A stretch of DNA of 64,000 nt. It comes from Candidatus Omnitrophota bacterium (GTDB lineage Bacteria > Omnitrophota > Gorgyraeia > Aquiviventales > JACQRC01). The position numbers were made by a program, and so were the translations under genes. Below, piece by piece: positions 5,364 through 60,899 of this stretch. Position 1 is the first letter of the stretch; each line of letters starts with the position of its first letter. The stretch covers positions 33 through 64,032 of the forward strand of contig JACQRC010000100.1 of assembly GCA_016206665.1 (NCBI GenBank). The letters are read 5' to 3'. The notes beneath the pieces were generated by a model, which did not search any database, was not told where the DNA came from, and saw nothing but the letters and a program-made list of their open reading frames with translations.

Positions 5364-5415
5364 AAAATGACGTTTAGCATCAACCGCACAAGCGCTTAGG
5401 AGAGGTTGCTGGCGT

Positions 5416-19086: not shown

Positions 19087-19108
19087 GACGCACCGAACGG
19101 CACGTCGC

Positions 19109-23294: not shown

Positions 23295-24952
23295 AGCGGC
23301 TCTGGGTGCTGGCGGCGATCGTGGTGGTCGGTGCGATCCCGCGGTTCTACCAGTGGCGCCAGGTGGGGCTCTTGACGCATGACGACGCCGCGGTCATGAA
23401 TGTCACCGGCACGGCGCTGGCGGCCGCCAACGTCGTGGGGCGCCACGCCGGTGACTTGCTGAGCCATCGCTGGACGCTGGCGGACGTGGAAGCCGCCGTG
23501 CACGCCGAGTTTGGTCCCGCCGATCTCCTTCAACGAGGAAAGCCGGGCCTGTTTCCCTTCTTGCTGCTCGGGGCGGGACTGACCGGTGTGTCGGATATGA
23601 CGCCCGCGCTGTGGATGGCCTGCTGTAGTCTGGCGGCGGCGCTGGCGGTGTATCTGCTGGGCCGCGAGGCGTGGGGGTCTGCCGTGGGCGGCGTGGCGGG
23701 CCTGCTCTTCGTCCTGTCGGGTCAGGTCTTGGTCTTTTCGCGCAACTACAAGATGGAAATCGCCCCCATGTGGCTGTGGTTGACATTAGGCACGTGGGCG
23801 TACCTGCGGGCGCGCCGCAGCGAGCGCCTGAGGTGGGTGGTGTTGAGTGGGCTGTTGGTGGGCTATGCCTTTACTTGCCATTACAGCATTCTGCTGTGGG
23901 TCGCCCTGTTTCCGCTCTTTGAACTGGCGTGGCCAGCCGATCCGGCGTGGCCGATCCATCGTCGGCTGAGGCGTGTCCTCGTCTGGGCTGGCGTGGCGGT
24001 CGTACCGGCCGTGCTGTTCCAACTCGCGACACTCGCCATCCGGCAGGTGTGGTTGCCGTTCATCACCTATTGGGGATCCGTGGGGTATCAGTTGAGTCAG
24101 CAGCAGCATCAGTCGCTGCCGGCCGATCCCTGGTACTACCTCTATTTTCTGTGGCGGCTGGACGGGCCGGCGAGCTTCCTCTGGCTGACGTTCGGCGCGG
24201 CAACGCTGACCTGGGCATGGCTCAGGCAGCGCGCGTTCGCCGCGGCACTACTCCTGACCCTGTGTACCGTGCCCCTGCTGGTCTTAAGCCTCTCAACGGC
24301 ATCGATCTTTACCGTGCCTCGCACCCTCGCGCCAGCGCTGCCCTTCCTGGCCGTGATGGCGGCGGTGGGGCTGGTGCGCTCCTCCGAGATCGTGGGACGC
24401 AGACTGCCGCAGCCGAGGCTGGCCTTGGCGCTGGCCGTCGGCATGACCGCCGCCGTGAACCTCCACCAGATTCTGCCGTTGACGCAGTGGCGCGCCGGCT
24501 ACCGCGACGCGGTCCGCTTCATCGCGAGCCGCACGGACTCCGGAGTGGCCGATCTAACGGACGCGCCGATCTGGCAATTCTATCTCCGTCGCACCGCCTT
24601 CGCGACCTCCGACCGGCAGGCCCTGGAGCAGCTCTACCGCTCCGGGCAGATCCGGTATCTGGCCGTGAGCCCCACAGCCACCATCCTGGCTACCTATCCC
24701 TCCAGTCTACCGGGGTCGATTCTGCATGAGTTTCAGGCCGTCGCGACGATGGTGGTGGACGTGCCGACCGTCGCCGAGTTTGAGCAGCCGGTAGTCGGGG
24801 AGCTGGACTATCTGGCTGAGGTGGGTCATCTGACGCGGCATCAGGTCCTGGAGATTCAGCGCCAGCCGGAACTGCGGCGGATCCGGCTCTATGATCTGGC
24901 CCAGCTCTTCGGGCCGCTTCAGACGGCGGCAGCAGCCGAGCGCAGCCCATGA
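23291..24952 (+). CDS. Polytopic GT-C-type glycosyltransferase (ArnT/PMT_2-like)
   Basis: 553 aa. ATGA overlap with the upstream gene. More than 10 predicted TM helices. First-loop acidic motif LLTHDDAAV. Soluble C-terminal domain. Followed by a polyprenyl-phosphate GT2-type gene. Confidence 0.6.
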   Translation: MKRLWVLAAIVVVGAIPRFYQWRQVGLLTHDDAAVMNVTGTALAAANVVGRHAGDLLSHRWTLADVEAAVHAEFGPADLLQRGKPGLFPFLLLGAGLTGVSDMTPALWMACCSLAAALAVYLLGREAWGSAVGGVAGLLFVLSGQVLVFSRNYKMEIAPMWLWLTLGTWAYLRARRSERLRWVVLSGLLVGYAFTCHYSILLWVALFPLFELAWPADPAWPIHRRLRRVLVWAGVAVVPAVLFQLATLAIRQVWLPFITYWGSVGYQLSQQQHQSLPADPWYYLYFLWRLDGPASFLWLTFGAATLTWAWLRQRAFAAALLLTLCTVPLLVLSLSTASIFTVPRTLAPALPFLAVMAAVGLVRSSEIVGRRLPQPRLALALAVGMTAAVNLHQILPLTQWRAGYRDAVRFIASRTDSGVADLTDAPIWQFYLRRTAFATSDRQALEQLYRSGQIRYLAVSPTATILATYPSSLPGSILHEFQAVATMVVDVPTVAEFEQPVVGELDYLAEVGHLTRHQVLEIQRQPELRRIRLYDLAQLFGPLQTAAAAERSP

Positions 24953-25653
24953 GCCTCCCGAGCCCTGCGCGGCGCCCGACGCTGACCGTGGCGATGTGCG
25001 TCTACAATGAGCGTCCGACCGCGCTCGACGTGTTCCGCAGGGTGCAGGCCGCGCCCCCCATCGACAAGGAGATCATCATCGTCGACAACTGCTCGACCGA
25101 CGGCACGCGGGAGCTGCTCCAGCAGCTGGACGGGCAGGCGACGGTGGTGCTGCACCCAAAGAATTTGGGCAAAGGGGCCTCGGTGCGGACCGCCATTGCG
25201 CGGGCGACCGGCGAGTACTTCATCATCCAGGATGCGGACACCGAGTATGACCCCGCCGAGTACCCCAAGCTGCTCGCCCGGGCCAGGGCCACCGGCGCGG
25301 ACGCGGTCTACGGCTCCCGGACGCTCACCGGACGCACGACCAAATATCTGCGGTTTTACTTCGGCGTGCAGCTGCTCACGTGGTTGACGAATCTGCTGTA
25401 CGGCGTGCATCTGACCGATGTGGCCACGGGTTTGAAGATGGTCAAGACCGACGTGATCCAGCAACTGCCCCTGCGGACCTCCGGCTTCGACTTCGACTTC
25501 GAGCTGACGAACCTGTTGTGCAAACGCGGCTGCCGTGTGGAGGAGGTGTCGATCGCGTACCACCCGCGCACCTTCGCCGAGGGCAAGAAGGTCCGCGCCT
25601 GGGACGGCGTGCGCGGGTTGTGGGTGATTCTCAAGAATCGTTTTGCGGATTGA
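24949..25653 (+). CDS. GT2 glycosyltransferase, polyprenyl-phosphate sugar synthase-like (Dpm1/ArnC/GtrB type)
   Basis: 234 aa. LTVAMCVYNE...IIIVDNCSTDGT...IIQDADTEYDP (DxD). Confidence 0.75.
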   Translation: MSLPSPARRPTLTVAMCVYNERPTALDVFRRVQAAPPIDKEIIIVDNCSTDGTRELLQQLDGQATVVLHPKNLGKGASVRTAIARATGEYFIIQDADTEYDPAEYPKLLARARATGADAVYGSRTLTGRTTKYLRFYFGVQLLTWLTNLLYGVHLTDVATGLKMVKTDVIQQLPLRTSGFDFDFELTNLLCKRGCRVEEVSIAYHPRTFAEGKKVRAWDGVRGLWVILKNRFAD

Positions 25654-25664
25654 GGAGCTGACGC

Positions 25665-26456
25665 ATGAAGACGGTCATTCTGTGCGGGGGGCTGGGGACG
25701 CGGTTGCGGGAGGAGACGGAGTTCCGGCCGAAGACGATGGTGCAAATCGGGGGCCATCCCATCCTCTGGCACATCATGCAGCTCTACGCCCACCACGGGT
25801 TCAACGAGTTCGTGCTCTGCCTGGGCCACCGGGGCGACGACATCAAGCAATATTTCCTGAACTACCCGTTCTACCACAGCGACTTCACCATCGAGGTGGG
25901 ACGGCCCGGGCGCGCCGTCGAGTTCCACGGCGGCCATCACGCGACGGGCTGGCGGGTGACGTGCGTCGATACCGGGCTGCAGACGCAGACAGGGGCGCGC
26001 CTGAAGCGGGTCGCCGGCTACGTGCCGGACGATACCTTTCTCTTCACGTACGGGGACGGGGTCGCGAATGTCGATCTCAAGCGGCTGATGGCGTTCCACC
26101 GCTCCCACGGCAAGATCGCGACGGTCACCGGCGTGCACCCCCCTTCGCGCTTCGGTGAGTTGCTGGTGCAAGGCGAGCGGGTGCAGGAGTTCAGCGAGAA
26201 ACCGCTCATCTCTGAGGGCCGCATCAACGGCGGCTTCTTTGTGCTGCAGCGCCGCATCTTTGACTATCTCTCGGATGAGGAGCTGCTCATCTTTGAGCGC
26301 GGGCCGCTCGAGCGGCTCGCCAAAGACGGGCAGCTGATGATGTATGCCCATGATGGCTTCTGGCAGTGCCTGGATACGCCGCGGGATCTGCAGCTGCTCA
26401 CCGAGCTGTGGGCGCAGGGGCGTCCCCCGTGGAAGGTGTGGGACAGCCGGTCATGA
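25665..26456 (+). CDS. rfbF: Glucose-1-phosphate cytidylyltransferase
   Basis: 263 aa. MKTVILCGGLGTRLREETEFRPKTMVQIGGHPILWHIMQLYAHHGFNEFVLCLGHRGDDIKQYF is near-diagnostic for RfbF/DdhA. Confidence 0.88.
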   Translation: MKTVILCGGLGTRLREETEFRPKTMVQIGGHPILWHIMQLYAHHGFNEFVLCLGHRGDDIKQYFLNYPFYHSDFTIEVGRPGRAVEFHGGHHATGWRVTCVDTGLQTQTGARLKRVAGYVPDDTFLFTYGDGVANVDLKRLMAFHRSHGKIATVTGVHPPSRFGELLVQGERVQEFSEKPLISEGRINGGFFVLQRRIFDYLSDEELLIFERGPLERLAKDGQLMMYAHDGFWQCLDTPRDLQLLTELWAQGRPPWKVWDSRS

Positions 26457-27424
26457 CCCTCGCAGGAGCGCGCGTCCTCGTCACGGGTGCCGCAGGGTTT
26501 CTGGCCTCGCACGTGGTGCGCCGCCTGCTCGCCTCCGGCGCTGAGGTGCATGGATGGGTGCGGCCGACGACGGACGCGTGGCGGCTCGCCGAGATGCGGT
26601 CCCGCCTGACGTTGCATCAGGTCGACCTGCGGGAGGCCGACCAGGTGCGGCAGGCCGTCGACCGCATTCGTCCATCGGTGTGCTTTCATTTGGCGGCGTA
26701 CGGCCTGAGCGCACGTCAGCATGATTGGGACGAGGCGGTGCGGACGAATGTGCTGGGTACCACGCACCTGCTGCAGGCGCTGGGAGCCGGCGGATGTCAG
26801 CGGCTGGTCTACACGACCACCTGTCACGAATATGCCTCGAAGGCGGAGGCCCTCAACGAGGAGGACCCGGTGGCGCCCCTCGAGCTCTACGGCAGCACCA
26901 AGGCGGCCGCCACCGCCGTGGTGCGGGCGTGGGCCTCAGGCGTCGGGCTGCCCACGGTGGTGCTGCGGTTGTTCGGGGTCTACGGCCCCTACGATGGGAC
27001 GAATAAGTTGATCCCCAACACGATCACCGCGCTGCTGAGCCGCCAGGTGGCGGCGGTCTCTCCGTGCGAGGTGGTGCGCGACTACACCTACGTCGATGAT
27101 ATCGTCGAGGGCATCCTGCGTTCCGCGGAGGCGTCCCTGAGCGGTGTCGTGACCATCAATCTGGGGTCCGGCCAGCCCGTCTCCCTGCGGCAGCTGGTGG
27201 AAGCGATCGCCGCACAGCTCGGCGGGCGTGTGGAGTTCGGCGCCATCCCGCCGCGCGCCGGCGAGGCGCAGAGCCTCTGGGCGGATGTCCGTCGGGCGGA
27301 AACGCTCCTGCACTGGCGCGCCACGGTCTCCTGGGAAGACGGGTTGCGCCGGACGATTGCCTGGTTTCGCACCCATGCGCGACACGAGCCGCTCTCCTCT
27401 TCGGCAGGGACGGCGCATGGCTGA
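26453..27424 (+). CDS. NAD(P)-dependent SDR epimerase/reductase (possibly CDP-4-keto-sugar reductase/epimerase)
   Basis: ORF track starts at 26366. ATG 26453 overlaps the upstream stop (ATGA). VLVTGAAGFLASHV. YGSTKAAA (YxxxK). Lies between rfbF and rfbG. Confidence 0.6.
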   Translation: MTLAGARVLVTGAAGFLASHVVRRLLASGAEVHGWVRPTTDAWRLAEMRSRLTLHQVDLREADQVRQAVDRIRPSVCFHLAAYGLSARQHDWDEAVRTNVLGTTHLLQALGAGGCQRLVYTTTCHEYASKAEALNEEDPVAPLELYGSTKAAATAVVRAWASGVGLPTVVLRLFGVYGPYDGTNKLIPNTITALLSRQVAAVSPCEVVRDYTYVDDIVEGILRSAEASLSGVVTINLGSGQPVSLRQLVEAIAAQLGGRVEFGAIPPRAGEAQSLWADVRRAETLLHWRATVSWEDGLRRTIAWFRTHARHEPLSSSAGTAHG

Positions 27425-28757
27425 GGAGCCCGTCGTGATCGTGGGGGCGGGGTTGGCGGGTCTCAGCGCCGCCTACCATCTGCGCCAGTACGGCATGGCC
27501 AGTCTGCTCTATGACAAGGAGGATCGTGCGGGGGGGCACACGCGCTCACACGCGCACGAGGGATTCATCTTCGATGAGGGGCCGCATGTCTCCTTCACCA
27601 AGGACGCGTATGTCCAGGAGCTCTTTGCCAAGAGTGCCGGCACCTATCATGAATTTTTATCGACCCAGCTCAACTACTACCACGGCGCCTGGCTCAAGCA
27701 CCCCGCCCTCTGCCATCTGCATGGGTTGCCCGTCGAGACGGTCGAGCGCTGTCTCGTCGATTTCTTCGAGGCCCAGCGCCGGTCGCATCCTGCGCCTACC
27801 GACTATGACCAATGGCTGCGGCAGCATTGCGGCAGTTACTTCACGGAGCAGTTTGCCGCGCGCTACACGCGCAAGTACTGGACGGTCGAGCCGGCGGAGC
27901 TGACCACGGACTGGGTGGGCGCACGCGTCTACGCGCCGCGGATCGAGGAGGTGGTGCGGGGCGCGCTCCAGCCGCAGGCGCAAGCACTCCACTACATTCA
28001 GCGCTGCCGCTATCCGGCCGCCGGCGGCTATGAAGCGTACACGCGCCTCCTTCAGGAGGGCGCCGAGGTGCGGACAGGCTGCGCCCTGGCCGAGCTGGAT
28101 GTCCGTCGTCACCGGGCCCTCTTCGCGAATGGCCAAGCCATCACCTATGGCAGCCTGGTCGCCACCCTGCCCCTGCCAGTGCTGGTGCAGATGATGACCG
28201 ACGCGCCCAGGGACGTCCGCGCGGCGGCCGACCGTCTGCGGTGGACGTCGGTCGCCCTGGTCAACGTGGGCGTGCGCCGGGCGGAGCTGTCCGGCGCCCA
28301 CTGGCTCTACTTCTACGATGAAGACCTCATTTTTTCGCGGGTCTCCTTTCCGCATCGGCTCTCACCGCAGAATGCACCACCGGGCTGTGGGAGCCTGCAG
28401 GCCGAAATCTATTACTCGCGATCCCGGCCGCTGCCCACCCGGCAGGTGCTCGAGCGCACCCTGGAGGATCTGCGGCGCGTGGGCCTGCTGCGCGCTGACG
28501 ACGAGCTCGTCGTGACCGCCACGCAGGAGATTGCTTTTGCCAATGTCATCTTTGATCACGCGCGCGAGGAGGCGGTCCGCTGTGTGCATCGGTTCTTGCG
28601 CGCGCATGGCATCCTGCCCTGCGGGCGGTATGGCGAATGGGGATATTTGTGGAGTGACCAGGCGGTCTTGAGCGGCCGGCGCATCGCCGAAGAGCTGGCC
28701 GGCAGCGCTGTGAGCTCCACCGTCGTCTCCGGCGGCAGCCGGAATCGGGAGGCATAG
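27417..28757 (+). CDS. FAD-dependent oxidoreductase of the amine-oxidase / UDP-galactopyranose-mutase-like superfamily
   Basis: ORF track starts at 27228. ATG 27417 gives MAEEPVVIVGAGLAGLSAAYHL...DRAGGH (dinucleotide-binding fold). FAARYTRKYWTVEPAELT resembles the mutase-family block. Confidence 0.55.
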   Translation: MAEEPVVIVGAGLAGLSAAYHLRQYGMASLLYDKEDRAGGHTRSHAHEGFIFDEGPHVSFTKDAYVQELFAKSAGTYHEFLSTQLNYYHGAWLKHPALCHLHGLPVETVERCLVDFFEAQRRSHPAPTDYDQWLRQHCGSYFTEQFAARYTRKYWTVEPAELTTDWVGARVYAPRIEEVVRGALQPQAQALHYIQRCRYPAAGGYEAYTRLLQEGAEVRTGCALAELDVRRHRALFANGQAITYGSLVATLPLPVLVQMMTDAPRDVRAAADRLRWTSVALVNVGVRRAELSGAHWLYFYDEDLIFSRVSFPHRLSPQNAPPGCGSLQAEIYYSRSRPLPTRQVLERTLEDLRRVGLLRADDELVVTATQEIAFANVIFDHAREEAVRCVHRFLRAHGILPCGRYGEWGYLWSDQAVLSGRRIAEELAGSAVSSTVVSGGSRNREA

Positions 28758-29792
28758 ATGGCCAAGACCTTTTGGGAGGACCGAGCCGTCTTCGTGACCG
28801 GCTGCACGGGGCTGCTCGGGTCGTGGATGACGAAGGCTCTCGTCGGCTCGGGAGCGCGCGTCGTGGGATTGGTCCGCGACCAAGTGCCGGACAGCCTGTT
28901 GGTGCAAGAGGGCCTCGAGGCGCAGATCACCGTTGTCCGTGGCTCGGTCGAGGAGTACGCGCTGCTGGAGCGGATCCTCAACGAATACGAGGTGGAGACC
29001 GTCTTCCATCTGGCGGCCCAGACGATCGTGACCATCGCCAACCGCAATCCGCTCTCGACCTTTGAATCCAACATCCGCGGGACCTGGAACGTCCTGGAGG
29101 CCTGCCGCCGCGTGCCGGCGGTGCGGCAGGTGCTCGTGGCCTCCAGCGACAAGGCCTACGGCACGCAGCCGCATCTGCCCTATGACGAGACGATGCCGCT
29201 CCAGGGCCGCCACTTCTATGACGTGTCGAAGAGCTGCGCCGATTTGCTGTCGGCCTCCTACTTCGAGATGGCGCAGCTGCCGGTCTGCATTATGCGCTGC
29301 GGCAATTTCTACGGCGGCGGCGATCTCAACTTCAACCGCATTGTCCCGCAGACGATCCGCGCAGCGCTGCGCAATGCCGCCCCGGTCATCCGCTCCGACG
29401 GCAGCTACGTGCGGGACTGGATTTACATCGAGGATGCCGTGGCTGCGTATGTGCTGCTGGCCGAGCGGATGGCGGAGCAACCGAAGCTCCTGGGGGAGGC
29501 GTTCAATTTTTCCAACGAGATGCAGATGACCGTCCTGCGCATCACCGAGGAGCTGTTGCGTGTCATGAGCCGCACCGATTTGCGGCCGCGCATCCTCAAT
29601 GAGCCGCTCAAGGAGATCCGCCACCAGTTCCTGAACGCCGGCAAGGCGCACCGGCTCCTCGGCTGGCAGCCGCGGTTCAGTCTGGAGGAGGGGCTGCAGC
29701 GGACGGTGGCGTGGTACCAGCGCTACTTCGCGCGCCATCAGGAGCTGTTGTCGGTGGAGCCGACAGGCACGGTCGAGGCGACCGAAGTCTAA
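28758..29792 (+). CDS. rfbG: CDP-glucose 4,6-dehydratase
   Basis: 344 aa. [21 protein letters not shown]-terminus. SSDKAYG and [11 protein letters not shown] (YxxxK) are typical of RfbG/DdhB. Confidence 0.8.
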
Positions 29793-29800
29793 GGAATCGC

Positions 29801-31153
29801 ATGCCCAAGAGTGTCGCACCGCAACCAGCAATCGGGGGGACGGCCAACGCCGAGACGGCCCGATTGCGCACGCAGATCCTGAAACTCGTTGACGAGTTTT
29901 ACCAGGCCGCTCATCGGCCAGCGGCCGCCTTTGTCCCCGGTGCGTCGAAGGTGCCATACGCCGGGCGCGTCTTCGATGCCCAGGAGATGCTCAAGCTGGT
30001 GGACGCGGCCCTGGACTTCTGGCTGACGGCAGGGCCGTATCACGCGGCGTTCGTTACGCGGATGCAGCGGTTTTTCGGCTCTCAGGGTTTCCTGCCGGTC
30101 AACTCCGGTTCCTCCGCGAATCTCTTGATGGTGGCCTCCGTGATGTCCGCGTCGTGGAAGCGGCATCTGCGTGCCGGCGATGAGGTCATCACGCCGGCCG
30201 TGACCTTTCCGACGACGGTCGCCCCCCTCGTGCAGCATGGCTTGATCCCTGTCTTCGTCGATGTGGATCTGGGCACCTATAACGCAGACCTCGACGAGGT
30301 CGAGGCCGCCATCTCCCCGAAGACCCGCGCGCTCTTTTTGCCGCACACGCTCGGCAATCCCTTGCCGATGGCTCGCGTGATGGCGCTCGTGGAGCGGCAT
30401 CACTTGATCCTGCTCGAGGACACCTGCGACGCCCTGGGTTCACGCTACGCGGGGCGCCTCGTCGGCACCTTCGGCACGATGGGGTCGCTGAGCTTCTACC
30501 CCGCGCATCACATGACGACGGGGGAGGGCGGCGGCGTCATCATCAACGACCCCACGATCAGCAAGGTGGCCCAGTCGGTGTGCGACTGGGGGCGTGACTG
30601 CTGGTGCCAGCCGGGCGTGAGCAACACCTGCGGCATGCGGTTCGGCTGGCAGCAGGGGAGTCTGCCCCAGGGCTATGACCACAAGTACATCTTCTCCAAC
30701 ATCGGCTACAACCTGAAGATGACTGAGCTGCAAGCCGCCATCGGCCTGGCCCAGGCGGAGAAGCTGCCGCAATTCGTGGCCGAGCGGCGGCGACGGTTCC
30801 AGCGCTATTATGATGCGTTTCAGCCCTATGCAGACCGCGTCATCCTGCCGCGCTGGGAGCCGGAGGCGGAGCCGGCCTGGTTCGGCTTTCCGCTCACCGT
30901 CCGGAAGGGTCTGTCGCGCGCGGAGCTGGTGGCGTGGCTCGAGGAGGTCCGGATCGAAACCCGGATGCTTTTCGGCGGCAACCTCCTCCGGCAGCCCGCT
31001 TATCAGCAGATCCCGCATCGCCGGGCGAGTGCGCTTAAGCGCTCGGACACGATCATGAACGACACCTTCTTCATCGGCGTCTATCCGGGCTTGACGGATT
31101 CCATGCAGGCCTTTGTCATCGAGCGCGTGTCGGAGTTTTTCCGCCGGCACTAA
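29801..31153 (+). CDS. rfbH: CDP-6-deoxy-L-threo-D-glycero-4-hexulose-3-dehydrase (E1; RfbH/DdhC/AscC type)
   Basis: ORF track starts at 29711 and ATG 29801 lies after the rfbG stop. DegT fold with His at the usual Lys position (SFYPAHHMTTGEGG). Cysteine pattern C-X57-C-X1-C-X7-C (DTC...DCWCQPGVSNTC), counted by hand, matches from memory the Fe-S motif reported for E1 dehydrase. Confidence 0.8.
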   Translation: MPKSVAPQPAIGGTANAETARLRTQILKLVDEFYQAAHRPAAAFVPGASKVPYAGRVFDAQEMLKLVDAALDFWLTAGPYHAAFVTRMQRFFGSQGFLPVNSGSSANLLMVASVMSASWKRHLRAGDEVITPAVTFPTTVAPLVQHGLIPVFVDVDLGTYNADLDEVEAAISPKTRALFLPHTLGNPLPMARVMALVERHHLILLEDTCDALGSRYAGRLVGTFGTMGSLSFYPAHHMTTGEGGGVIINDPTISKVAQSVCDWGRDCWCQPGVSNTCGMRFGWQQGSLPQGYDHKYIFSNIGYNLKMTELQAAIGLAQAEKLPQFVAERRRRFQRYYDAFQPYADRVILPRWEPEAEPAWFGFPLTVRKGLSRAELVAWLEEVRIETRMLFGGNLLRQPAYQQIPHRRASALKRSDTIMNDTFFIGVYPGLTDSMQAFVIERVSEFFRRH

Positions 31154-31160
31154 ACGGACC

Positions 31161-32183
31161 ATGCCTACCTGTTCCATTCTGCTGCCAACCTATCAGGCGG
31201 GCGCCTTCATCGGGCGCGCCATCGAGGGCGTCCTCGCCCAGCAGGAGACCGACTGGGAACTGCTCATCGGTGACAACGCGTCCCAGGATGAAACGGCACG
31301 CGTCGTGAGCCGGTTCCAGGACCCGCGCGTGCGCTACCTGCGCCGGCCCCACAACGTCGGCTACGTCCGCAATGTCCGACAGATGCTCGCCGAGGAGGCG
31401 CGGGGAGAGTACGCCGTCATCCTGTGCGCCGATGATTGGTGGGAAGCGGCGTATCTCCACACGGCCCTCGCCGTCTGCGCGCAGGATCCGACGGTGGGCT
31501 GGGTGCATACGGCCTTTCGTTTTCAGGATGACGCGGCGCAGACGGCACGCGCCCACGTCATGACCGACTGTCCCCGTGTGATGGAGGGGCGGGCGTTCCA
31601 CGAGCGCTTCTTCTTCGGGGGCGGCATGCTGGTCGCCCTCTCCTCGGTCCTGTTCCGGCGCGACTGGGCGCTGCAAGCGGAGGCCTTCCAGCAGGAGGTC
31701 TTTCACACCGACACGGCCCTGTGGCTGAAGCTGGCCTGCCTGGGCCGCGTCGGCTATTGCCCGGCACCGCTGGTGACCTACCGCTGGCGTTCCGACAATC
31801 TCTCGAATACCACGGCCCGCGCCCGGCGGCTCGAGGAATGGATCGATGCGTTGACCGGCGTCCTCGCCTTCGCGAGACGACAGGGTCTCGCGTCGAACCC
31901 GGCGTGGGAGCGGGCGGTGATGGCGCGGACGCTGACGTGGTGTCTGAAGGACGCGCCCAACGTGAAGATCGCCTCCGGCTCGAACCGTGAGGTCGCCCGC
32001 GTGGTGCGGAAGGTCTATCGCACCGCCCCGAGGGTTTTCCTGCACCCCGGCGTCCTGACGCGCGTGGCCCTGGCCTTCAGCGCGCCGCCGGGACCGCTGG
32101 CGATGCTGCGACGGTGGCGGAACTACGGGCGTCCCTCGGACAGCTTTCAACTGCCCCTGGACCACCTGGCCTCGACGACATGA
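31161..32183 (+). CDS. GT2 glycosyltransferase
   Basis: ORF track starts at 31113. ATG 31161 gives MPTCSILLPTYQAGAFIGRAIEGVLAQQ...LLIGDNASQDET...CADDWW. Confidence 0.8.
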   Translation: MPTCSILLPTYQAGAFIGRAIEGVLAQQETDWELLIGDNASQDETARVVSRFQDPRVRYLRRPHNVGYVRNVRQMLAEEARGEYAVILCADDWWEAAYLHTALAVCAQDPTVGWVHTAFRFQDDAAQTARAHVMTDCPRVMEGRAFHERFFFGGGMLVALSSVLFRRDWALQAEAFQQEVFHTDTALWLKLACLGRVGYCPAPLVTYRWRSDNLSNTTARARRLEEWIDALTGVLAFARRQGLASNPAWERAVMARTLTWCLKDAPNVKIASGSNREVARVVRKVYRTAPRVFLHPGVLTRVALAFSAPPGPLAMLRRWRNYGRPSDSFQLPLDHLASTT

Positions 32184-35100
32184 CACCAGCAGCCGGGCTC
32201 TCCACACCGAGGCACGACACCGCGACCATCCGTCAGTCCTTCCGCGATTATCAGGCCCTGGTGATCGGCCAGGGCGGCGCGGTCCTCCTGGCAACCGTGA
32301 ACAGCGTGGTCATGACCCGCTGGCTGGGATCCTCGGGCTATGGCCGGCTCGCCCTCTTCGTCATGGTCACGCAGGTCATCTTCACGACCCTCGCCGGGTG
32401 GTTGACCGCGGCCATCGTGCGGTATGGCTGCGAGGAACTGGTCCAGCAACGCTCCCTGCGCCGCACCGTCGGTGCCAGGCTGTTCATTCTGGGTCCGTTG
32501 CTGTGCCTGTTAGCGGCGGCGAGCTGGCTGTGGCGGGTGCCGTTGAGCCAGTACCTCGGTGTGCCGTCCTGGGCGGTGCTGTGGGTGGACATCGCCGTCG
32601 CCGGTTCCATCGCATCGGTCACGGTGCAGTCGCTGCTGCAAGCGAGCAGCGCCATGAAGGGTTATGCGTGGCTGTTACTGATCGAACGAGCCGGCGTGCT
32701 GGCCGGGTTGCTGTCGCTCCAAGCGGTCCGTGGCGTGGAGCCGGTCCTCGGCTGCATGATGTTAGTGGCCGTCATGCCGTGGCTCTCGACGCTCGCGGGG
32801 CTGCGGTTCCTGGCCTGGCGCGCCTGGTGGCCGCCGGTGGCGGATCTGTCCTGGGTGCGCCGGCACCTGCGTTTTTCCCTGCCCCTGATCCTCGCGGCGA
32901 CGGCGGCGACCGTGGCGACGTGGGCCGATGTGGCGTTGACGAATCACTTCGTGTCGACCCTGGAATTGGGCGCCTACGCGCTGGCGCGTCAGATGGCCAT
33001 GCTGCTCAAGCAGGGGGTCGTGCTGGCCGGATTCCTGGTCTCACCCATCCTCTTTCAGTGGCACGTCTCCGGCGAGCCTGCGCGCATCGACCGATACGTC
33101 CAGCGGCTCCTGCCGCTCGCGGCGCTGCTCTGGTGCAGCGTCGTCGCCATCCTGCTTCCCCTCGTGTGGTGGGTGCTCCCGCATATCTGGGGAGCCGAGT
33201 TTGCGCGCGCCGACTGGCCGTGGCTGCTCCTCGCCGTCGAGTTGGGACTGAGTGCCTGGTACTATCTTGGCGTGCCGGTCCTGACCGCGCATGAGGCCTC
33301 GGGCCGGATCACCCTCATCAACACACTGACCGCCATCCTGGTCCCGGCGCTCGGCTGGTGGCTCATTCCCCGTCACGGGATCGTGGGCAGCGCCTGGGCG
33401 GTCGTGTGCACCTCCTGGGCCGGGCAGGTGTTGGTGCTCTACTCTTTACGCCGCCTGAGCCATCTGCGCTGGGCGGCGTGCGCCGGCGCGATGCTCCCGC
33501 TGCTCCTCAGCGCCGGGCTCTGCTGGTGGGCGGGGCCGTGGACGGCCGTGCTGGGCACGGCGGTGCTGCTGCTCATCCTCGGCCGGTGGCTGTGGCGGCG
33601 GCGCGCATTTCTCGACGACGACGACCTCACGTTACTGCGTACCATCGAGCTGCCGGCCTGGAGTCAGTGGGCGCTGGACGGCGTGCGTTGGGTACTGAGC
33701 CAGGCCGTGCGCCCGCCCACCGTGGCCACGGCGTCGCAGCGCTCCACCACCCCGACGGTGAGTGTCATCATTCCCACCTTCAACCGGGCGGAGTTGGTCG
33801 TGCGGGCCGTCGAGAGCGTCTTGGCGCAGACCTGGCCGGAGTATGAAGTCATCGTGGTGGACGACGGCTCCACCGATGATACCGCCGACCGACTGCGCCC
33901 CTACGCAGGCCGCATGACGCTCCTGCGGCAACCGCATGCCGAGCGCGCCACGGCGCGCAACCGCGGTATTGCGGCCTCGCGCGGGGCCTTCATCGCCTTC
34001 CTCGATTCCGATGACCGCTGGTTGCCGGCCAAGCTGGCGGACGATCTCGCCGTCTTCGCCAGGTCGCCGGAGGCGGGACTCGTCTATTGCGGGGCGGCGC
34101 TCATCGACGCCGCGGAACGGCCGCTCAAGCGGCTGCGCACGCCGTGGAGGGAGGGGCAGGTCGTTGAGCCGCTCGTGTGGCAGACCAACTTCATTCCGAA
34201 CTCCTCGGTCACGGTGCGCCGCGCGTGCCTCGAGGCGGTCGGTGGGTTTCGTGAAGATCCGCAGCTCTCCGGCTCCGAGGATTGGGAGTTGTGGTTCCGC
34301 CTGGCGGCACGATTTCCTGTCGCTGCCGTGCGGCGGCACAACATTCAGCTGCGCGTGCATCAGCAGAATACCCTCCATAACGCCGCGCAGATGGAGCGCT
34401 CGATGTGGTGGGCGTGGACGCTCATCCAGCGACATCCCGCGCTGGCCCAGCAGTCACCGGCGCGGATCCGCCGCGCGGAAGCGGTCGTCGCCAGGCACAT
34501 CGCCGTGGGCTACTATGGGAGCCGGCAGATGGCGGCGGCGCGGACGTGGCTCCACCGGTCACGACGGCTGGACGGCGCTCAGGTGGCGACGTGGCGCTGG
34601 CTGACCACCTATTTCAAATCCTGGCTCCCGCGGCGCAGAGCCGCGGCGCCGGAGCCATCGCTGGCGGCCGACCTGCGCCGACGCATCGGCGCCATCGTGG
34701 AGCAGGCGGTGGCAGAGCTGCCGGACTTAGAGGTGTGGAAGAATCAGTTTCGTTTCCGCGCGAGAGAGTTTGAGCTCCTGGCGCGTCAGGCCCCGATGCC
34801 GCGCAGCCGGCGCGTGCTGGAGGTTGGCTGCGGCAACGGGCTCTCGGCCACGCTCCTGGCCCAGTCCGCCGATCTCGTCATCGCGACGGATCTGCCACAG
34901 GGCAATCCGCACACCGCCTCGCAGGGCATCGGATCGCCCCAACGGCTCTTCGACACACTCGGGGTCACCAACTGCCACCCCCTCGCCTGTCCCGGTGAGG
35001 CGCTGCCCTTTGCCGATGGCAGTTTCGATCTCGTCTTTTCTAGTCATACCCTGGAGCATATTCCCCAGCCGGCGTCCGCCCTGCAAGAGATGCATCGGGT

Positions 35101-35581
35101 CCTGGCGCCCGGCGGCTGGCTCTACCTGGTGCTGCCGACGACCGTGGAACGGATGACCTTTCTGCCGTCTTTTTATCAGCAACTCTGGGGTCGGGCGTGG
35201 GCTCGTGCGTGGCGACACCACGCGCCTGCGGATGCGGCCCCACCGGCGTCGTCAGGATCGAACGGTCGCATCACCTGGTGGGAATTATTGTGGCAGCGGC
35301 ATCCTCACTTTCCCTGGCCCGAGCCGCACGGTGCCTACCGTCACTTTCTCGCGGAGGTGGTGGCCTACCATCCCTGGCGATGGCGGCGGCTCGTGGAGCG
35401 CAACGGCTTCCAGATCCGTCAGCAATTTACAACGATACTGTTTCCCTACCATTTGGCGGGTCTGCTGACGGATCCGTTTCCCTGGTTTCTGCGCTGGTCG
35501 GACTGGGTGCGGCCCCTGCACGGGTGGCCCGTGCTGCGGTCGCTGGGGCATAACGTGTGCCTGGTGGCGCAGAAGGAGTGA
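32180..35581 (+). CDS. Tri-domain fusion: Wzx/MOP-type oligosaccharide flippase + GT2 glycosyltransferase + class I SAM methyltransferase
   Basis: ORF track starts at 32114. ATG 32180 overlaps the upstream stop (ATGA). About 500 aa polytopic with ...VVMTRWLGSSGYGRLALFV... typical of polysaccharide flippases. TVSVIIPTFNRAELV...VIVVDDGSTDDT...FLDSDDRW (GT2). RVLEVGCGNGL...FADGSFDLVFSSHTLEHI...LAPGGWLYL (methyltransferase motifs I-III). Confidence 0.75.
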   Translation: MTPAAGLSTPRHDTATIRQSFRDYQALVIGQGGAVLLATVNSVVMTRWLGSSGYGRLALFVMVTQVIFTTLAGWLTAAIVRYGCEELVQQRSLRRTVGARLFILGPLLCLLAAASWLWRVPLSQYLGVPSWAVLWVDIAVAGSIASVTVQSLLQASSAMKGYAWLLLIERAGVLAGLLSLQAVRGVEPVLGCMMLVAVMPWLSTLAGLRFLAWRAWWPPVADLSWVRRHLRFSLPLILAATAATVATWADVALTNHFVSTLELGAYALARQMAMLLKQGVVLAGFLVSPILFQWHVSGEPARIDRYVQRLLPLAALLWCSVVAILLPLVWWVLPHIWGAEFARADWPWLLLAVELGLSAWYYLGVPVLTAHEASGRITLINTLTAILVPALGWWLIPRHGIVGSAWAVVCTSWAGQVLVLYSLRRLSHLRWAACAGAMLPLLLSAGLCWWAGPWTAVLGTAVLLLILGRWLWRRRAFLDDDDLTLLRTIELPAWSQWALDGVRWVLSQAVRPPTVATASQRSTTPTVSVIIPTFNRAELVVRAVESVLAQTWPEYEVIVVDDGSTDDTADRLRPYAGRMTLLRQPHAERATARNRGIAASRGAFIAFLDSDDRWLPAKLADDLAVFARSPEAGLVYCGAALIDAAERPLKRLRTPWREGQVVEPLVWQTNFIPNSSVTVRRACLEAVGGFREDPQLSGSEDWELWFRLAARFPVAAVRRHNIQLRVHQQNTLHNAAQMERSMWWAWTLIQRHPALAQQSPARIRRAEAVVARHIAVGYYGSRQMAAARTWLHRSRRLDGAQVATWRWLTTYFKSWLPRRRAAAPEPSLAADLRRRIGAIVEQAVAELPDLEVWKNQFRFRAREFELLARQAPMPRSRRVLEVGCGNGLSATLLAQSADLVIATDLPQGNPHTASQGIGSPQRLFDTLGVTNCHPLACPGEALPFADGSFDLVFSSHTLEHIPQPASALQEMHRVLAPGGWLYLVLPTTVERMTFLPSFYQQLWGRAWARAWRHHAPADAAPPASSGSNGRITWWELLWQRHPHFPWPEPHGAYRHFLAEVVAYHPWRWRRLVERNGFQIRQQFTTILFPYHLAGLLTDPFPWFLRWSDWVRPLHGWPVLRSLGHNVCLVAQKE

Positions 35582-35585
35582 GGGT

Positions 35586-37925
35586 GTGAAGCTCTCGGTC
35601 GTCATTCCAGCCCACAACGAAGAGGAGAATCTGCCGCGGGTCATCCCGTCACTCCTGGCCATCCTGCAGCGGGAGGGGATCGAGCGGGAGATCATCCTCG
35701 TCGACGACAACAGCCGCGACGGCACCGCCGCGCTGATCGACGACTACGCACGTGCCCACCCGGAGATTCGAGCCGTGCACCGCCGAGGCCAGCCGGGCTT
35801 CGGCCGGGCGATCCGCGACGGCCTGGCCCAGGCGACCGGCGAGGCGGTGGCCATCGTGATGGGCGATCACTCGGACGACCCCGAGGATGTCGTGCGCATG
35901 TACCGCCGGCTCGCCGAGGGCTGCGATGCCGTCTTTGGTTCCCGCTTCATTCCGGGAGCATCCGTCAGGGATTACCCGCGGTTCAAATGGGTCGTCAACC
36001 GCCTGGCGAACCGGTTTTTGCAGCTGCTCTTCTGGTCGTCCTGCAACGACCTCACGAACGCGTTCAAGCTCTACCGTCGACAGGTCCTCCAGACGATCGG
36101 TCCCCTGCAGACGGAGCATTTCAACATCACCGCGGAGCTGCCGCTCAAAACGCTGCGGGCAGGCTGCCGGGTGGCCGTGGTGCCGGTCCGGTGGTACGGC
36201 CGGCGCAGCGGGGTTTCGAAGTTGAGCATCGCCCGCATGGGCCGGCATTATCTGCAGACGGCGCTGGACATTTGGGTGCGGTACCACCCGCGCGGGATCC
36301 CGTCTTGGATTTGGGGCGCTCTGGCCGGCCTCGTGCCGCTCGTCGTGTACTGGGCCTTTCCGAATCACAATTTTTCGAGCATCGATCCCATCAATTATGC
36401 GGATGCGATCCAGCGCGGTGGATGGCCGGTCCTGCTGAACCCGCACCATCTGCTGTATCACGTCGTGGGACGCGCCTGCTGGCTCGCCGCCCGGGGGCTC
36501 GGCCTGGCCGTGTCGCCGATGCACTTGATGCAGTGGTGCAATGGCGTGTGGGGGGCCGCGGGGGTCGTGCTCTGCTGGTCGATTCTCCGTGCCCTGAGCG
36601 GCTCGCGTCTCTCATCGGCAGGTGCCACGGTCTTCGCGTGGCTGCTCGCGAGCGCTTACGGGTACTGGTTCTTCTCGATCGAAAATGAGGTCTACATTCC
36701 GCCCGCCGTCCTCGCCTTGGCGACGTTTCGGCTGCTGATCGGCTTGACGCACGCTGGACACGCGGCCCAACAGATCCGTTGGGCGGTGGTCGTGGGCGTG
36801 CTGACGGCCCTCATGACCGGCTTCTACCAGACCTACGGTCTGTGGAGTGCGGTCGTGATCCTCTGGGCCCTCCGCACGCTCCCGCGCGGGTCGAGGCTGC
36901 GGTGGCTCTGCTGGTACGCAGTCACCGTGGCACTCGGTGTGGCCATCGCCTACGGGGTCGCGGCATGGTTGACGCTGCCACCGGCCGAGCGGTCATGGGG
37001 GGCCGCCCTGCGCTGGCCCCTCGGCTATCTGCAATCCGGACGGTGGGGAGCGGTTGATTTTCAAGCGATGCGCCTCTGGCCCTACGGCTTTGCGCGCGTG
37101 GTCCTGGCCGGGCGACCGATGCGAGACTGGCTGCTGAGCCCGCACTGGTCGCCGTCGGGCACGATCCTTCTCGGCAGCTGGGTGCTCGTCGGCGTGCTGG
37201 CGACCATCGTGGTCGTGCGAGGCCTTCGGAACGTGCGCGGCCTGCGGCAGGAACAGGCCGTGTGGGCGGGGTTGTTGACCCTGTGGGCGGCGCTGTTTGC
37301 CGTGGTCGCACTCTGGATCGAGCCGATTGACTGGCAATTTTGGGTGCCGGTCCTGATTCCGATAGCACTGCTGGTGGCCCTGGCGTGGTCCGCCGGACCG
37401 GTCTCGCGTCCTGGGTGGGAGCGTGTCGTGCCGGCAGGACTCGTGGCGAGCCTGGTGTGTGTCAACTTCCTGACCGCTGTCCATCCCGACACCGATCGCA
37501 CGCGCAACACCTGGTATCGGCTGGCGACCCAGCTCCACCAGCAGCGCCTCACGCAGCGGGATCTGCTCCTGATGTATGAGGAGGTGCCGGTCATGTACCA
37601 CTATTATTACGGCGTTCCCGCGCGCTCGGGCTCCCTGGGGCAGTACGTGACGCGCACGCCCGAGGAGCGCGCCAGGGCCTTTGGAACCTTGCGCGGTCTC
37701 ATCCATCAGACCCTCGAAAGCGGGGGCCGGGTCTTCATCGCCGAAACCGAGCTGCACCCGAATCCGCGGCGCCGCCTGCCATTCCGGTTCATGAGTCCGG
37801 GGGACTACACGGCTTTCTATCAATCGTATGAGCAGCAGATCACACCGGTCTTCTCCTTTTTCTTCGAGGGGGGAGAGCGCCGCATGTATCAACTCGTCAG
37901 CGACCTCAACCGCAAGGGAGGCTAA
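35586..37925 (+). CDS. Fusion of Dpm1-like GT2 (polyprenyl-phosphate sugar synthase type) with a ~540-aa polytopic GT-C-like membrane domain
   Basis: 779 aa. GTG start after AAGGAG. KLSVVIPAHNEEENL...LVDDNSRDGT...VMGDHSDDP. Then more than 10 TM helices and a soluble C-terminal segment. Confidence 0.65.
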   Translation: MKLSVVIPAHNEEENLPRVIPSLLAILQREGIEREIILVDDNSRDGTAALIDDYARAHPEIRAVHRRGQPGFGRAIRDGLAQATGEAVAIVMGDHSDDPEDVVRMYRRLAEGCDAVFGSRFIPGASVRDYPRFKWVVNRLANRFLQLLFWSSCNDLTNAFKLYRRQVLQTIGPLQTEHFNITAELPLKTLRAGCRVAVVPVRWYGRRSGVSKLSIARMGRHYLQTALDIWVRYHPRGIPSWIWGALAGLVPLVVYWAFPNHNFSSIDPINYADAIQRGGWPVLLNPHHLLYHVVGRACWLAARGLGLAVSPMHLMQWCNGVWGAAGVVLCWSILRALSGSRLSSAGATVFAWLLASAYGYWFFSIENEVYIPPAVLALATFRLLIGLTHAGHAAQQIRWAVVVGVLTALMTGFYQTYGLWSAVVILWALRTLPRGSRLRWLCWYAVTVALGVAIAYGVAAWLTLPPAERSWGAALRWPLGYLQSGRWGAVDFQAMRLWPYGFARVVLAGRPMRDWLLSPHWSPSGTILLGSWVLVGVLATIVVVRGLRNVRGLRQEQAVWAGLLTLWAALFAVVALWIEPIDWQFWVPVLIPIALLVALAWSAGPVSRPGWERVVPAGLVASLVCVNFLTAVHPDTDRTRNTWYRLATQLHQQRLTQRDLLLMYEEVPVMYHYYYGVPARSGSLGQYVTRTPEERARAFGTLRGLIHQTLESGGRVFIAETELHPNPRRRLPFRFMSPGDYTAFYQSYEQQITPVFSFFFEGGERRMYQLVSDLNRKGG

Positions 37926-38644: not shown

Positions 38645-39573
38645 GCCTGGCCGTGTTGTGCGAGGTGTGCCGGGGCCAGGAGTGGGGCACGGCCTTTCGG
38701 TTGCCCACGCTCACGGTGTGGCGGTGCCGCCGCTGCGCCTTGCTGCGGGCGGGCGATGTCACGCCAGAACTCGGCAGCGATGGAGCAGCGACCCAGCACT
38801 TCACCGCCTATGATTTGGAGACGTATCGGGCCTACTATCAGCCCTTCAGGGAGCAGGCCTTTCGGCGGTTGCTCTCCGAGATTCAGGCCCTGCAGCCGTC
38901 GGGACGGCTGCTGGACGTCGGCTGCGGCTATGGTTGGCTGCTGCGGGTGGCTCGGGAGGCGGGCTACGACGTGCTCGGCGTGGAGCCGTCGGCGGAGGTG
39001 GCGCGGAGCGCCCGGCAGGAGACCGGATTGCCGGTGGTGGAGGGTGCTCTGGCGGTGCTCGGCGACGGAGAGCGCTTCGAGGTCATCACTCTCTGCAATG
39101 TGCTCGAGCACTTGCCGCAGCCGCGCGAGTCGCTGCGCCAGTTAACGCGCTTGCTGCGACCGGATGGGGTACTCGCCATCTGCGTACCTAATATTCAGGG
39201 GCTGCTGCATCGGTGCGTCACCTGGGGGTACCGCGCCACGGGCGGACGCTGGACCGCTCCGCTGGAGATGTTGTATCAAACCGACAATGCCTGCCGCCAT
39301 CTCTACCACTTTTCCCCGGACACCCTCACCGCGCTGGTTCGGGAGGCGGGGCTGTCGGTGCGTCGCTGCCGCACTCAAAAGATCATTGACGTGGATCGAT
39401 TGGAGCTGCGGACACGGCTCAGCCCCTCGGCGGAGCGTCTGCGGTGGGCCGCCACACCACCGGTCAAGCTGCTCCTCAAGGGCCTGCTCGGGATGGGTGT
39501 GTGGTGCGGTCTCGGCGACGAGCTCGTCGTGGTGGCCCAGCGGCCGCAGGAGCCGGTGGAGATCCTCGCATGA
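38641..39573 (+). CDS. Class I SAM-dependent methyltransferase with N-terminal CxxC...CxxC zinc-ribbon
   Basis: ORF track starts at 38539. ATG 38641 overlaps the upstream stop (ATGA). CEVC...CRRC. LLDVGCGYGWLL...FEVITLCNVLEHLPQP...LRPDGVLAICVPN. Confidence 0.75.
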   Translation: MSLAVLCEVCRGQEWGTAFRLPTLTVWRCRRCALLRAGDVTPELGSDGAATQHFTAYDLETYRAYYQPFREQAFRRLLSEIQALQPSGRLLDVGCGYGWLLRVAREAGYDVLGVEPSAEVARSARQETGLPVVEGALAVLGDGERFEVITLCNVLEHLPQPRESLRQLTRLLRPDGVLAICVPNIQGLLHRCVTWGYRATGGRWTAPLEMLYQTDNACRHLYHFSPDTLTALVREAGLSVRRCRTQKIIDVDRLELRTRLSPSAERLRWAATPPVKLLLKGLLGMGVWCGLGDELVVVAQRPQEPVEILA

Positions 39574-40970
39574 ACCGTCAGACGATGATTGCGGGAGTGA
39601 TGGGCGGCATCCTGCTCGGTGTCCTGGCGGCGTGCTCACCGATGAGTGTCGCGGCCATCGTCGTCAGCCTCGGCATCGCCTGGCTCCTGCGCCGCGCACT
39701 TGCCGAGGAAGGTCCCTGGATCGCGAGGCTGTTTCTATGGGGGATGGGCACGAGGCTGGCGGTGACCGCGGCGCTGCACGCGTGGCATGCGTGGGCCTTT
39801 CCCCGGGCTCAGGTGGCGCTCAGCTGGGACAGTGGGGGGTATCTACTGATGGCGCAGCGGCTGGCCCTGGTGTTGGCCAACAAGTTTCCCTCACTGGAGA
39901 CGCTGGTGCTGATGACGACCCCGCCGACCCTGATGAATGAATGGTACGGATATGCGGGGAACGTGGTCTGGCTCGGGTTCGCCTATTACCTGCTGGGATT
40001 TGCTCCCATCGTCGGCACCGTGGTGAGCAGCTTCCTCTATATGGGGGCGGTGGTGCTCATCTACCAGACGGCCCTCGAACTCTTCAACCGGCCCGCGGCA
40101 CGATGCGCCGCCTGGCTGGCCACCTTCCTGCCGACGACCTTCTATTGGTCCATCAATCACGGCAAGGAGCCGTTGGGCACCCTGGGGCTGGCCATCATCG
40201 TGTGGGCGGCCCTGCGGTGGCAGCAGCGCCGTCGGCACGGGTACCTGGCGGCGTTGGCGGCGGGAGCCTGGATCTTCTGGACGGTGAAACCGCGCATGAT
40301 GCCGCTGGTGATCCTCGGCGGAGTGCTGGCGGCTGTGTGGGCCGTCTATCGACGCGGGGGACGCCTCCGCGGCGCCGTGGTGGTGATCATCGGCGCGCTG
40401 CTGTGCGTCGAGGCCGCCAGCTGGACCGGTCTGGTCGCGCGCCGGGGGCCGGTCACCCGCGTCTACTACGAGTGGGTCAGACGCTGCATGGGCCAGAATC
40501 GAGTCTTGCAATACGGCGATTCGGTGTACCGTATTTATCCTCAGGGGATGCTGCGCTCGGACGGCAACCTCCATCCGGCCAACTTCAGCCACGGCCAATT
40601 TGCGCTGGGCGTGGCGCGGGGTCTGTCGCGCTTCCTATTCACCCTGGTGCCGCCGTGGGCCGTGCAGAAGCCCGGCTGGCTGGCCCTGATCCCACAAGTC
40701 GTGTTCGGCTATCTGATCCTCCCATGGATGGTGCCGGGATTTGCCTCGGCCCTGCGGAAAGATAGCCGGCTCGCCTGCTTCGGCTGTCTGATGCTCATCC
40801 TCCTGACCATCAATCTGGCTGCCACGGAAGCCAACGTCGGCACCGCCCTGCGCCACCGGGATATGCTGATGCCTTTCTATCTCCTCTATGCCGTGGGCGG
40901 CCTGGTCACCGTCTTGTCGGCACTGGCCGGTCAGCGGCGGGACTCCGCCGCTGCGGCGATGGCGGGTTGA
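39570..40970 (+). CDS. Polytopic integral membrane protein (possible GT-C glycosyltransferase or glycan polymerase/ligase)
   Basis: ORF track starts at 39444. ATG 39570 overlaps the upstream stop (ATGA). About 466 aa with more than 10 hydrophobic helices. No soluble-enzyme motifs recognised. Confidence 0.45.
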   Translation: MNRQTMIAGVMGGILLGVLAACSPMSVAAIVVSLGIAWLLRRALAEEGPWIARLFLWGMGTRLAVTAALHAWHAWAFPRAQVALSWDSGGYLLMAQRLALVLANKFPSLETLVLMTTPPTLMNEWYGYAGNVVWLGFAYYLLGFAPIVGTVVSSFLYMGAVVLIYQTALELFNRPAARCAAWLATFLPTTFYWSINHGKEPLGTLGLAIIVWAALRWQQRRRHGYLAALAAGAWIFWTVKPRMMPLVILGGVLAAVWAVYRRGGRLRGAVVVIIGALLCVEAASWTGLVARRGPVTRVYYEWVRRCMGQNRVLQYGDSVYRIYPQGMLRSDGNLHPANFSHGQFALGVARGLSRFLFTLVPPWAVQKPGWLALIPQVVFGYLILPWMVPGFASALRKDSRLACFGCLMLILLTINLAATEANVGTALRHRDMLMPFYLLYAVGGLVTVLSALAGQRRDSAAAAMAG

Positions 40971-59807: not shown

Positions 59808-59837
59808 CGCGTGCTGAACCGATAAGGAGGGGGGATC

Positions 59838-60893: not shown

Positions 60894-60899
60894 GGTTTC

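Follow-up and report, generated by a model that had tools for sequence, protein, structure and literature searches.

We analyzed a 64,000-nucleotide stretch of DNA from a Candidatus Omnitrophota bacterium (contig JACQRC010000100.1, contig positions 33 to 64,032; hereafter the window) and focused on one open reading frame (ORF) on its forward strand, which encodes a Wzx-type flippase module, a family 2 glycosyltransferase (GT2) module and an S-adenosylmethionine (SAM)-dependent methyltransferase module in a single polypeptide of 1133 residues. Relatives from groundwater metagenomes carry the same three genes side by side as separate units, and comparison with them indicates that the ORF is probably a genuine, lineage-specific fusion of adjacent wzx, GT2 and SAM methyltransferase genes into one inner-membrane protein. 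Its most likely role is to keep two late-acting tailoring enzymes, for one glycosyl transfer and one methylation, attached to the flippase through which their lipid-linked glycan is exported.

One reading frame with three modules

The interval 32180..35581 is a real coding frame. Counted from the ATG at 32180 it runs for 1133 codons without interruption (the longest form opens at a GTG at 32114), and this ATG forms a 4-nt overlap (ATGA) with the stop of the GT2 gene upstream and lines up with the N terminus of the nearest homolog. The G+C fraction at third codon positions (GC3) is 0.68–0.95 in the ORF frame along its entire length, both junction regions included, and the sequence is 67% GC. 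Because GC3 is uniformly high in a single frame through both junctions, a hidden or compensated frameshift is ruled out; a chance open frame of GC-rich DNA is ruled out by the domain matches and by the codon periodicity. A preliminary account made from the letters alone (the sequence-only reading) had proposed one uninterrupted frame with these three modules. The ORF and its GC3 profile bear out the frame, three Pfam families above their curated cut-offs bear out the modules, and all of the motifs that it quoted lie where it had placed them, among them VVMTRWLGSSGYGRLALFV at residue 43 and LAPGGWLYLVLP at residue 975.

The same reading had made its case hinge on whether the N-terminal domain is MOP/Wzx-like by profile search, and residues 26–291 match Polysacc_synt (PF01943) at 47.6–48.8 bits against a gathering cut-off of 28.2, covering profile positions 7–270 of 274. 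Hydropathy resolves 14 hydrophobic segments between residues 27 and 472, and two AlphaFold2 (AF2) runs place 14 long helices over the same span. The loops on the N-terminal side contain 22 lysine and arginine residues versus 7 on the opposite side, and an RRRAF motif follows transmembrane segment (TM) 14; by the positive-inside rule, both termini of the membrane module and the whole of the C-terminal 650 residues are therefore predicted to be in the cytoplasm, as the idea put forward in the sequence-only reading requires for the GT2 and methyltransferase domains.

Beyond the family profile, an hhalign comparison of a four-sequence profile with Escherichia coli WzxE gave an in-register match restricted to TM1–3 (probability 80%, E value 1.4e-5). 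A Foldseek search with the AF2 model of the flippase module returned MurJ, WzxE or MATE proteins as all of the first ~30 Protein Data Bank (PDB) matches, with TM-scores of 0.35–0.46. Because that model, built from 4 sequences, is of low confidence (predicted local distance difference test (pLDDT) score 53, predicted TM-score (pTM) 0.54), these fold matches lend weak support. The module has no NCBIfam match and no PDB match by sequence; on its profile match we count it as a MOP/Wzx family member.

The two enzyme modules are more readily placed. Residues 528–651 match Glycos_transf_2 (PF00535) at 102.8 bits (2.5e-29), above the curated cut-off, and the module is confidently folded as a GT-A domain (pLDDT 75–94). 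TVSVIIPTFNR begins at residue 526 (nt 33755), DDGSTDDT at residue 561 and DSDD at residue 609; the last two and SGSEDWELW are intact, and DDGSTDDT, DSDD and SEDWE are invariant in the alignment that we used (A2). Foldseek matches comprise SpsA, 6p61, WrtF and AvpGT, with E values of about 1e-11 to 1e-12, and also TarP, at target-normalized TM-scores of 0.7–0.9. Among NCBIfam models the neighbors are WcaA, EpsD, TuaG and PglI, all below equivalog cut-offs, and in the PDB the module also matches chain 9jma_A, which is named GalNAc(5)-diNAcBac-PP-undecaprenol beta-1,3-glucosyltransferase. The module thus appears to belong with the soluble GT-A enzymes that decorate oligosaccharide or polymer acceptors, and it does not resemble polyprenyl-phosphate sugar synthases.

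In the C-terminal module, residues 880–983 match Methyltransf_11 (PF08241) at 73.8–76.5 bits, above the curated cut-off, and RVLEVGCGNGL begins at residue 878 (nt 34811). Its core LEVGCGNG (residues 879–886), the GxGxG SAM-binding motif, is conserved in two standalone relatives, P0014 and P0132, which also share the C-terminal extension of the module. The module is 56–61% identical to the 326-residue P0014, and every score against NCBIfam methyltransferase equivalogs is far below cut-off.

Unfused relatives and the two junctions

In an exhaustive HMMER search over 1.84 billion representatives, each module had as its best relative a protein of its own, whose ends fall at the edges of that module: P0012 for the flippase (a 402-residue fragment, 59% identity over query residues 117–509), P0028 for the GT2 (309 residues, 49% over 524–821) and P0014 for the methyltransferase (61% over 836–1132). 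Genomic contexts from groundwater metagenomes (L001, L002 and L085–L087, the last being three assemblies) show how these genes are arranged. In L001, L085, L086 and L087, a standalone Wzx of 504 residues ends in VRWVLGRPLHSLP and a stop codon, followed by a 62-nt spacer (63% GC) and the ATG of a GT2 gene that begins MDQPAVSVVIPTYNR. In L002, a second and distinct relative, wzx ends in VRWVLTRPAQILP and a stop codon, the GT2 gene begins ~73 nt farther on in a different frame, and the methyltransferase gene overlaps the GT2 stop codon by 4 nt (ATGA).

These loci are collinear with the window in the order dehydratase, RfbH, GT2, Wzx, GT2, methyltransferase. Identity to the window is 78% for the CDP-sugar dehydratase, 75% for the RfbH-type dehydrase, 59% for the upstream GT2, 60% for Wzx, 58–62% for the GT2 module and 56% for the methyltransferase module. 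Set against them, the window ORF apparently arose within one lineage by two fusions that joined three neighboring operon genes, each orthologous to its counterpart in the relatives. Because its nearest relatives carry three separate genes, this is not a conserved architecture; the order wzx–GT2–methyltransferase is itself conserved in the relatives, which supports a functional link among the three.

Both junctions differ from the corresponding sequence of the relatives. Linker 1 stands in place of the relatives' stop codon, 62–73-nt spacer and GT2 start codon. In a DNA alignment with L085, ~46 nt are absent here, in two gaps that take in the stop codon together with the greater part of the spacer, and an ACG occupies the position of the GT2 ATG of L002. 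Residues 509–526 have G or C at the third position in 18 of 18 codons (position-wise counts 11/15/18; binomial p about 6e-4 for a background of 0.66), whereas the corresponding spacer of the relatives is 0.60–0.63 GC with no codon periodicity. No Shine–Dalgarno sequence precedes the GT2 module; many genes in the window have one of the GGAG type. Linker 2 stands in place of the relatives' ATGA stop/start overlap, with a net gain of 4 nt relative to L002 and a CTG at the position of that locus's methyltransferase ATG. Both linkers are predicted to be flexible.

The alternative is an artefact of metagenome assembly or consensus calling, in which there are truly three genes and the stop codons or frame offsets were lost through errors or through a collapsed or chimeric consensus. 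It would account for a singleton protein from a metagenome-assembled contig whose relatives are all unfused, and at junction 2 it would need to explain a net difference from L002 of only 4 nt. Against this, two independent junctions would both have had to turn in-frame and stop-free, the linker codons have the third-position composition described above and the ancestral ATGs are now ACG and CTG. A simple sequencing error is unlikely because junction 1 lacks ~46 nt, stop codon and spacer included, rather than one base. A chimeric join is excluded by the collinearity with the relatives, which holds to either side of the ORF. Domain matches over the full length of other window genes speak against a contig full of indels, and they show no widespread frameshifts. 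On this sequence evidence we favor a real fusion that is not very recent, and we regard the artefact as improbable.

Searches for a second example returned none within their respective scopes. The best 150 of the 1.84 billion representatives include no other protein with a Wzx-like module, and indexed searches with the full-length protein and with the flippase module found no second fusion. A metagenome scan with the GT2 alignment gave relatives at 46% identity or less among the matches listed; among the 80 metagenomic loci listed with related GT2 genes, none has a polytopic domain fused to the GT2, and two (L019 and L059) have a GT2 and a methyltransferase in one ORF. A scan of GTDB genomes, whose representatives do not include the source metagenome-assembled genome (MAG), yielded one irrelevant weak match and no second fusion. 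Databases contain this exact protein a single time, as MBI4356148.1 (‘MAG: glycosyltransferase [Candidatus Omnitrophica/Omnitrophota bacterium]’, from a 64,080-bp contig), and a look-up of contig records encoding it returned none. In the literature we found no description of a Wzx protein fused to biosynthetic enzymes. Multi-domain glycosyltransferase/methyltransferase proteins are frequent in polysaccharide loci; the unusual element here is that the flippase is included.

Proposed tethering of tailoring enzymes for glycan export

From the N terminus, the chain is predicted to consist of a MOP module with 14 TM segments, a helical tail, a linker of ~17 residues, a GT-A domain, a linker of ~15 residues and the methyltransferase, which would place both enzymes at the cytoplasmic face beside the flippase. 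As in the relatives, the three activities would share one polyprenyl-diphosphate-linked glycan unit, to which the GT2 would add a late sugar; the methyltransferase would then methylate the unit and the Wzx module would flip it. By setting a 1:1:1 stoichiometry and holding the tailoring enzymes at the export site, the fusion could favor export of fully decorated units and so complement the preference of Wzx for complete ones. Wzx flippases prefer complete O-units, and a gatekeeper role has been postulated for them (PMC11784914); some flip units without a terminal dideoxyhexose poorly (PMC6436433). The sequence-only reading, which knew of no completion signal for Wzx-type flippases, was incomplete in this respect, as gatekeeping for complete O-units is described in both of these sources.

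Several observations weigh against the tethered-enzyme reading or narrow it. The fused protein is a singleton, with 1 cluster member and one MAG contig, and every relative found is unfused; the architecture is therefore not one that selection has conserved across lineages. The AF2 model of the fused protein (pTM 0.40) shows no packing between domains that is predicted with confidence. The putative flippase module diverges strongly, and the indexed database contains one close relative cluster (P0012/P0163) and two weak matches (P0161 and P0162, annotated PF01943/PF13440, ‘O-antigen/teichoic acid export membrane protein’). Within the methyltransferase module, a GGAG lies 6 nt before a GTG at residue 844, and some methyltransferase might also be produced separately from it; such an internal start cannot undo the fusion, because the ORF has no stop codon. 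Finally, no Wzy, Wzz or initiating phosphoglycosyltransferase was recognized among the ORFs scanned in the window, smaller ORFs not being included in that scan; these proteins may lie outside the window or among the smaller ORFs, or may be too divergent to recognize.

A stronger claim would be an obligate completion checkpoint, with flipping only after the tethered GT2 and methyltransferase have acted and with the methyl group as export signal, as for WbdD/Wzt. A completion checkpoint, which the sequence-only reading had raised, is plausible: the enzyme modules are predicted to be cytoplasmic and to adjoin the flippase, the gene trio is conserved in relatives, Wzx gatekeeping for complete units is documented as cited above and a conserved cytoplasmic Wzx tail could serve docking or regulation. 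We nonetheless consider the obligate form unlikely, as the relatives manage with separate proteins, and the fused protein has two linkers predicted to be flexible and no predicted inter-domain interface. WbdD, a kinase/methyltransferase terminator that acts with Wzm/Wzt, ties lipid-linked glycan methylation functionally to export; it does so by an ABC-transporter route with a carbohydrate-binding module and is itself unfused to the transporter. The analogy that the sequence-only reading drew with terminal methylation in ABC-dependent systems does not extend to membership in them: among the scanned ORFs of the window, neither a Wzm/Wzt transporter bearing a carbohydrate-binding module nor a WbdD-like kinase or coiled coil was found.

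A further element is the segment that follows the membrane module. This predicted cytoplasmic helical tail is identical to P0012 at 17 of 21 residues, compared with 59% overall, and its motif (LRTIELPAW.QW.L..VRWVL) has counterparts at 5800..5875 of L085 and at 3..60 of L002, where the portion present matches too. In the relatives, the standalone Wzx terminates 8 codons past the tail. We regard the conserved tail as a candidate docking element for partner enzymes. If the fusion is read as a ‘Rosetta stone’, Wzx flippases would form physical complexes with those cytoplasmic tailoring enzymes that act last, and the Wzx tail of the relatives would dock GT2 and methyltransferase. Gating for complete, methylated units would then depend on direct hand-off as well as on what the flippase cavity recognizes. 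This extension is speculative, and we give it a slightly smaller chance than the obligate checkpoint.

Another route from the same modules would be a polyprenyl-monophosphate-sugar branch of the GtrA/B/C or ArnC/ArnT kind, with the GT2 making a polyprenyl-phosphate sugar, the MOP module flipping it and nearby GT-C-like proteins (two PMT_2 proteins and a faint GtrII match in the C-terminal part of the next gene, 35586..37925) using it in the periplasm, which is highly improbable given that the family and fold matches of the fused GT2 are to WcaA/EpsD/TuaG/PglI-type families and to soluble SpsA, WrtF and TarP, and that the synthase-like GT2s of the island are other genes (24949..25653 and the N terminus of 35586..37925). 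To our knowledge, moreover, the known polyprenyl-phosphate-sugar flippases are small GtrA or SMR-type proteins and not PF01943 proteins.

Among characterized systems, the Wzx flippases (RfbX/WzxE, acting on O-units and on lipid III of enterobacterial common antigen) share with the window module the PF01943 profile, a polytopic bundle, termini predicted to be inside and a position in a glycan cluster beside glycosyltransferase genes, in addition to the weak in-register similarity to E. coli WzxE. The module differs in its ~14 predicted helices, a number shared with MurJ; E. coli WzxE, at 416 residues, is shorter. The window protein differs in its strong divergence, in the ~650 residues of predicted cytoplasmic enzymes at its C terminus and in the absence of a recognized Wzy or Wzz from the scanned window ORFs. 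The unfused trio of the relatives (P0163/P0012, the GT2 of L002 and P0014) has the same modules, order and upstream genes (dehydratase, RfbH and GT2) at 56–78% identity, and differs in being three genes with stop codons, a 62–73-nt spacer and an ATGA overlap.

Mycobacterial MurJ (MviN) carries, after its 14th TM, a linker and a cytoplasmic pseudokinase domain that modulates or couples to flipping, according to PMC6180346 (citing Gee et al. 2012). It is thus an earlier structural example of a MOP flippase extended past TM14 by a cytoplasmic domain, and it differs in that its added domain is regulatory and non-catalytic and its substrate is lipid II, whereas the window ORF adds two biosynthetic enzymes. 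Other proteins unite a GT2 and a class I methyltransferase in one polypeptide (P0021, P0056, P0107 and the L019 and L059 ORFs), but none of them has a polytopic flippase module. The resemblance to PglI- and WcaA-type GT2s, which add late or branch sugars to undecaprenyl-diphosphate-linked oligosaccharides before flipping, is at the family level only, and those enzymes are free-standing.

How Wzx ensures that only finished units are exported is debated between substrate-triggered flipping and gatekeeping. The fused protein and its unfused counterparts provide testable systems for enzyme–flippase proximity, and the fusion nominates partners for interaction studies. Subject to confirmation at the level of reads, its main value is as a Rosetta-stone hint of cooperation between a flippase and late-acting tailoring enzymes. 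Neighboring operon genes commonly fuse in the course of evolution, and because this case comes from a single genome, its wider significance stays limited unless the fusion is verified and further instances come to light.

The surrounding glycan-biosynthesis island

The fused ORF sits within a very large glycan-biosynthesis island on the + strand, roughly 10–62 kb, which holds UDP-glucose dehydrogenases, many epimerases and dehydratases, several DegT-type enzymes, a carbamoyltransferase and a family 1 glycosyltransferase (GT1). Coordinates of the modules and of the principal neighboring genes are collected in Table 1.

Table 1. Modules of the fused ORF and selected genes of the island (window positions; aa, residues of the fused protein)
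Feature	Position	Strand	Evidence or remark
Fused ORF, 1133 aa, NCBI MBI4356148.1	32180..35581	+	Wzx-type module, GT2 and SAM methyltransferase
Wzx/MOP-type flippase module, aa 1-475, ~14 TM, predicted N-in/C-in	32180..33604	+	PF01943, hydropathy
Helical tail, aa 480-507, predicted cytoplasmic, LRTIELPAWSQWALDGVRWVL	33617..33700	+	Helices H480-489 and H494-507
Linker 1, aa 508-524	33701..33751	+	pLDDT below 50
GT2 / GT-A glycosyltransferase module, aa 525-820	33752..34639	+	PF00535, fold
Linker 2, aa 821-835	34640..34684	+	pLDDT below 50 over aa 818-829
Class I SAM-dependent methyltransferase module, aa 836-1133	34685..35581	+	PF08241
Upstream GT2 gene, translationally coupled to the fused ORF	31113..32183	+	Orthologue precedes wzx in relatives (59%)
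RfbH-type CDP-6-deoxy-hexulose 3-dehydrase, likely start near 29801	29711..31153	+	NF011936, 604 bits vs 423
CDP-glucose 4,6-dehydratase-like gene	28758..29792	+	Syntenic with relatives (78%)
Glucose-1-phosphate cytidylyltransferase, entry to CDP-dideoxyhexose pathway	25665..26456	+	TIGR02623, 344 bits vs 300
PMT_2 (GT-C-like) polytopic proteins	23291..24952 and 39444..40970	+	
Small polyprenyl-P-hexose/GalNAc-synthase-like GT2	24949..25653	+	
HepA/MsbA/PglK-like ABC half transporter, ~22 kb downstream	57861..59807	+	Only ABC protein found in scanned ORFs

Directly upstream of the GT2 gene and the fused ORF lies a CDP-3,6-dideoxyhexose gene set (25665..31153, + strand) that is syntenic with the groundwater relatives and includes an FAD amine-oxidase-like gene (27228..28757). 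Just downstream of the fused ORF are two free-standing methyltransferases. The gene that immediately follows it (35586..37925, + strand) is itself fusion-like: its N-terminal GT2 resembles the AglJ, ArnC and dolichyl-phosphate hexose transferase families, and its C-terminal domain of ~550 residues has at least 7 TM segments and a faint match to GtrII (PF14264), so that the gene may unite a synthase with a GT-C-type transferase of the periplasm. The PMT_2 proteins and the small synthase-like GT2 suggest that the island contains a periplasmic glycosylation branch.

Farther along the + strand, the ABC half transporter and, after it, a PseB/PglF-type dehydratase (PF02719) and then a DegT aminotransferase (57861..62114) may form a second lipid-linked glycan export route in the island. 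Between DegT-type genes and a methyltransferase, a pair of E1_dh (thiamine diphosphate) and transketolase-like genes (53221..55202, + strand) may carry out a thiamine-dependent branched-chain or two-carbon transfer in sugar biosynthesis, and a NodU/CmcH-type carbamoyltransferase (18911..20977, + strand) implies an O-carbamoylated sugar. An Rfam scan of the window gave no family at the gathering threshold. Elsewhere in the window, an AT-skew spike (0.378) at 8–10 kb is due to a low-complexity ORF rich in Gln, Arg, Glu and Ala (8750..10018, + strand; ~422 residues, with an N-terminal hydrophobic, signal-like segment), and three large ORFs precede it (10..8751), two of which have weak DUF11/SdrD B-like matches.

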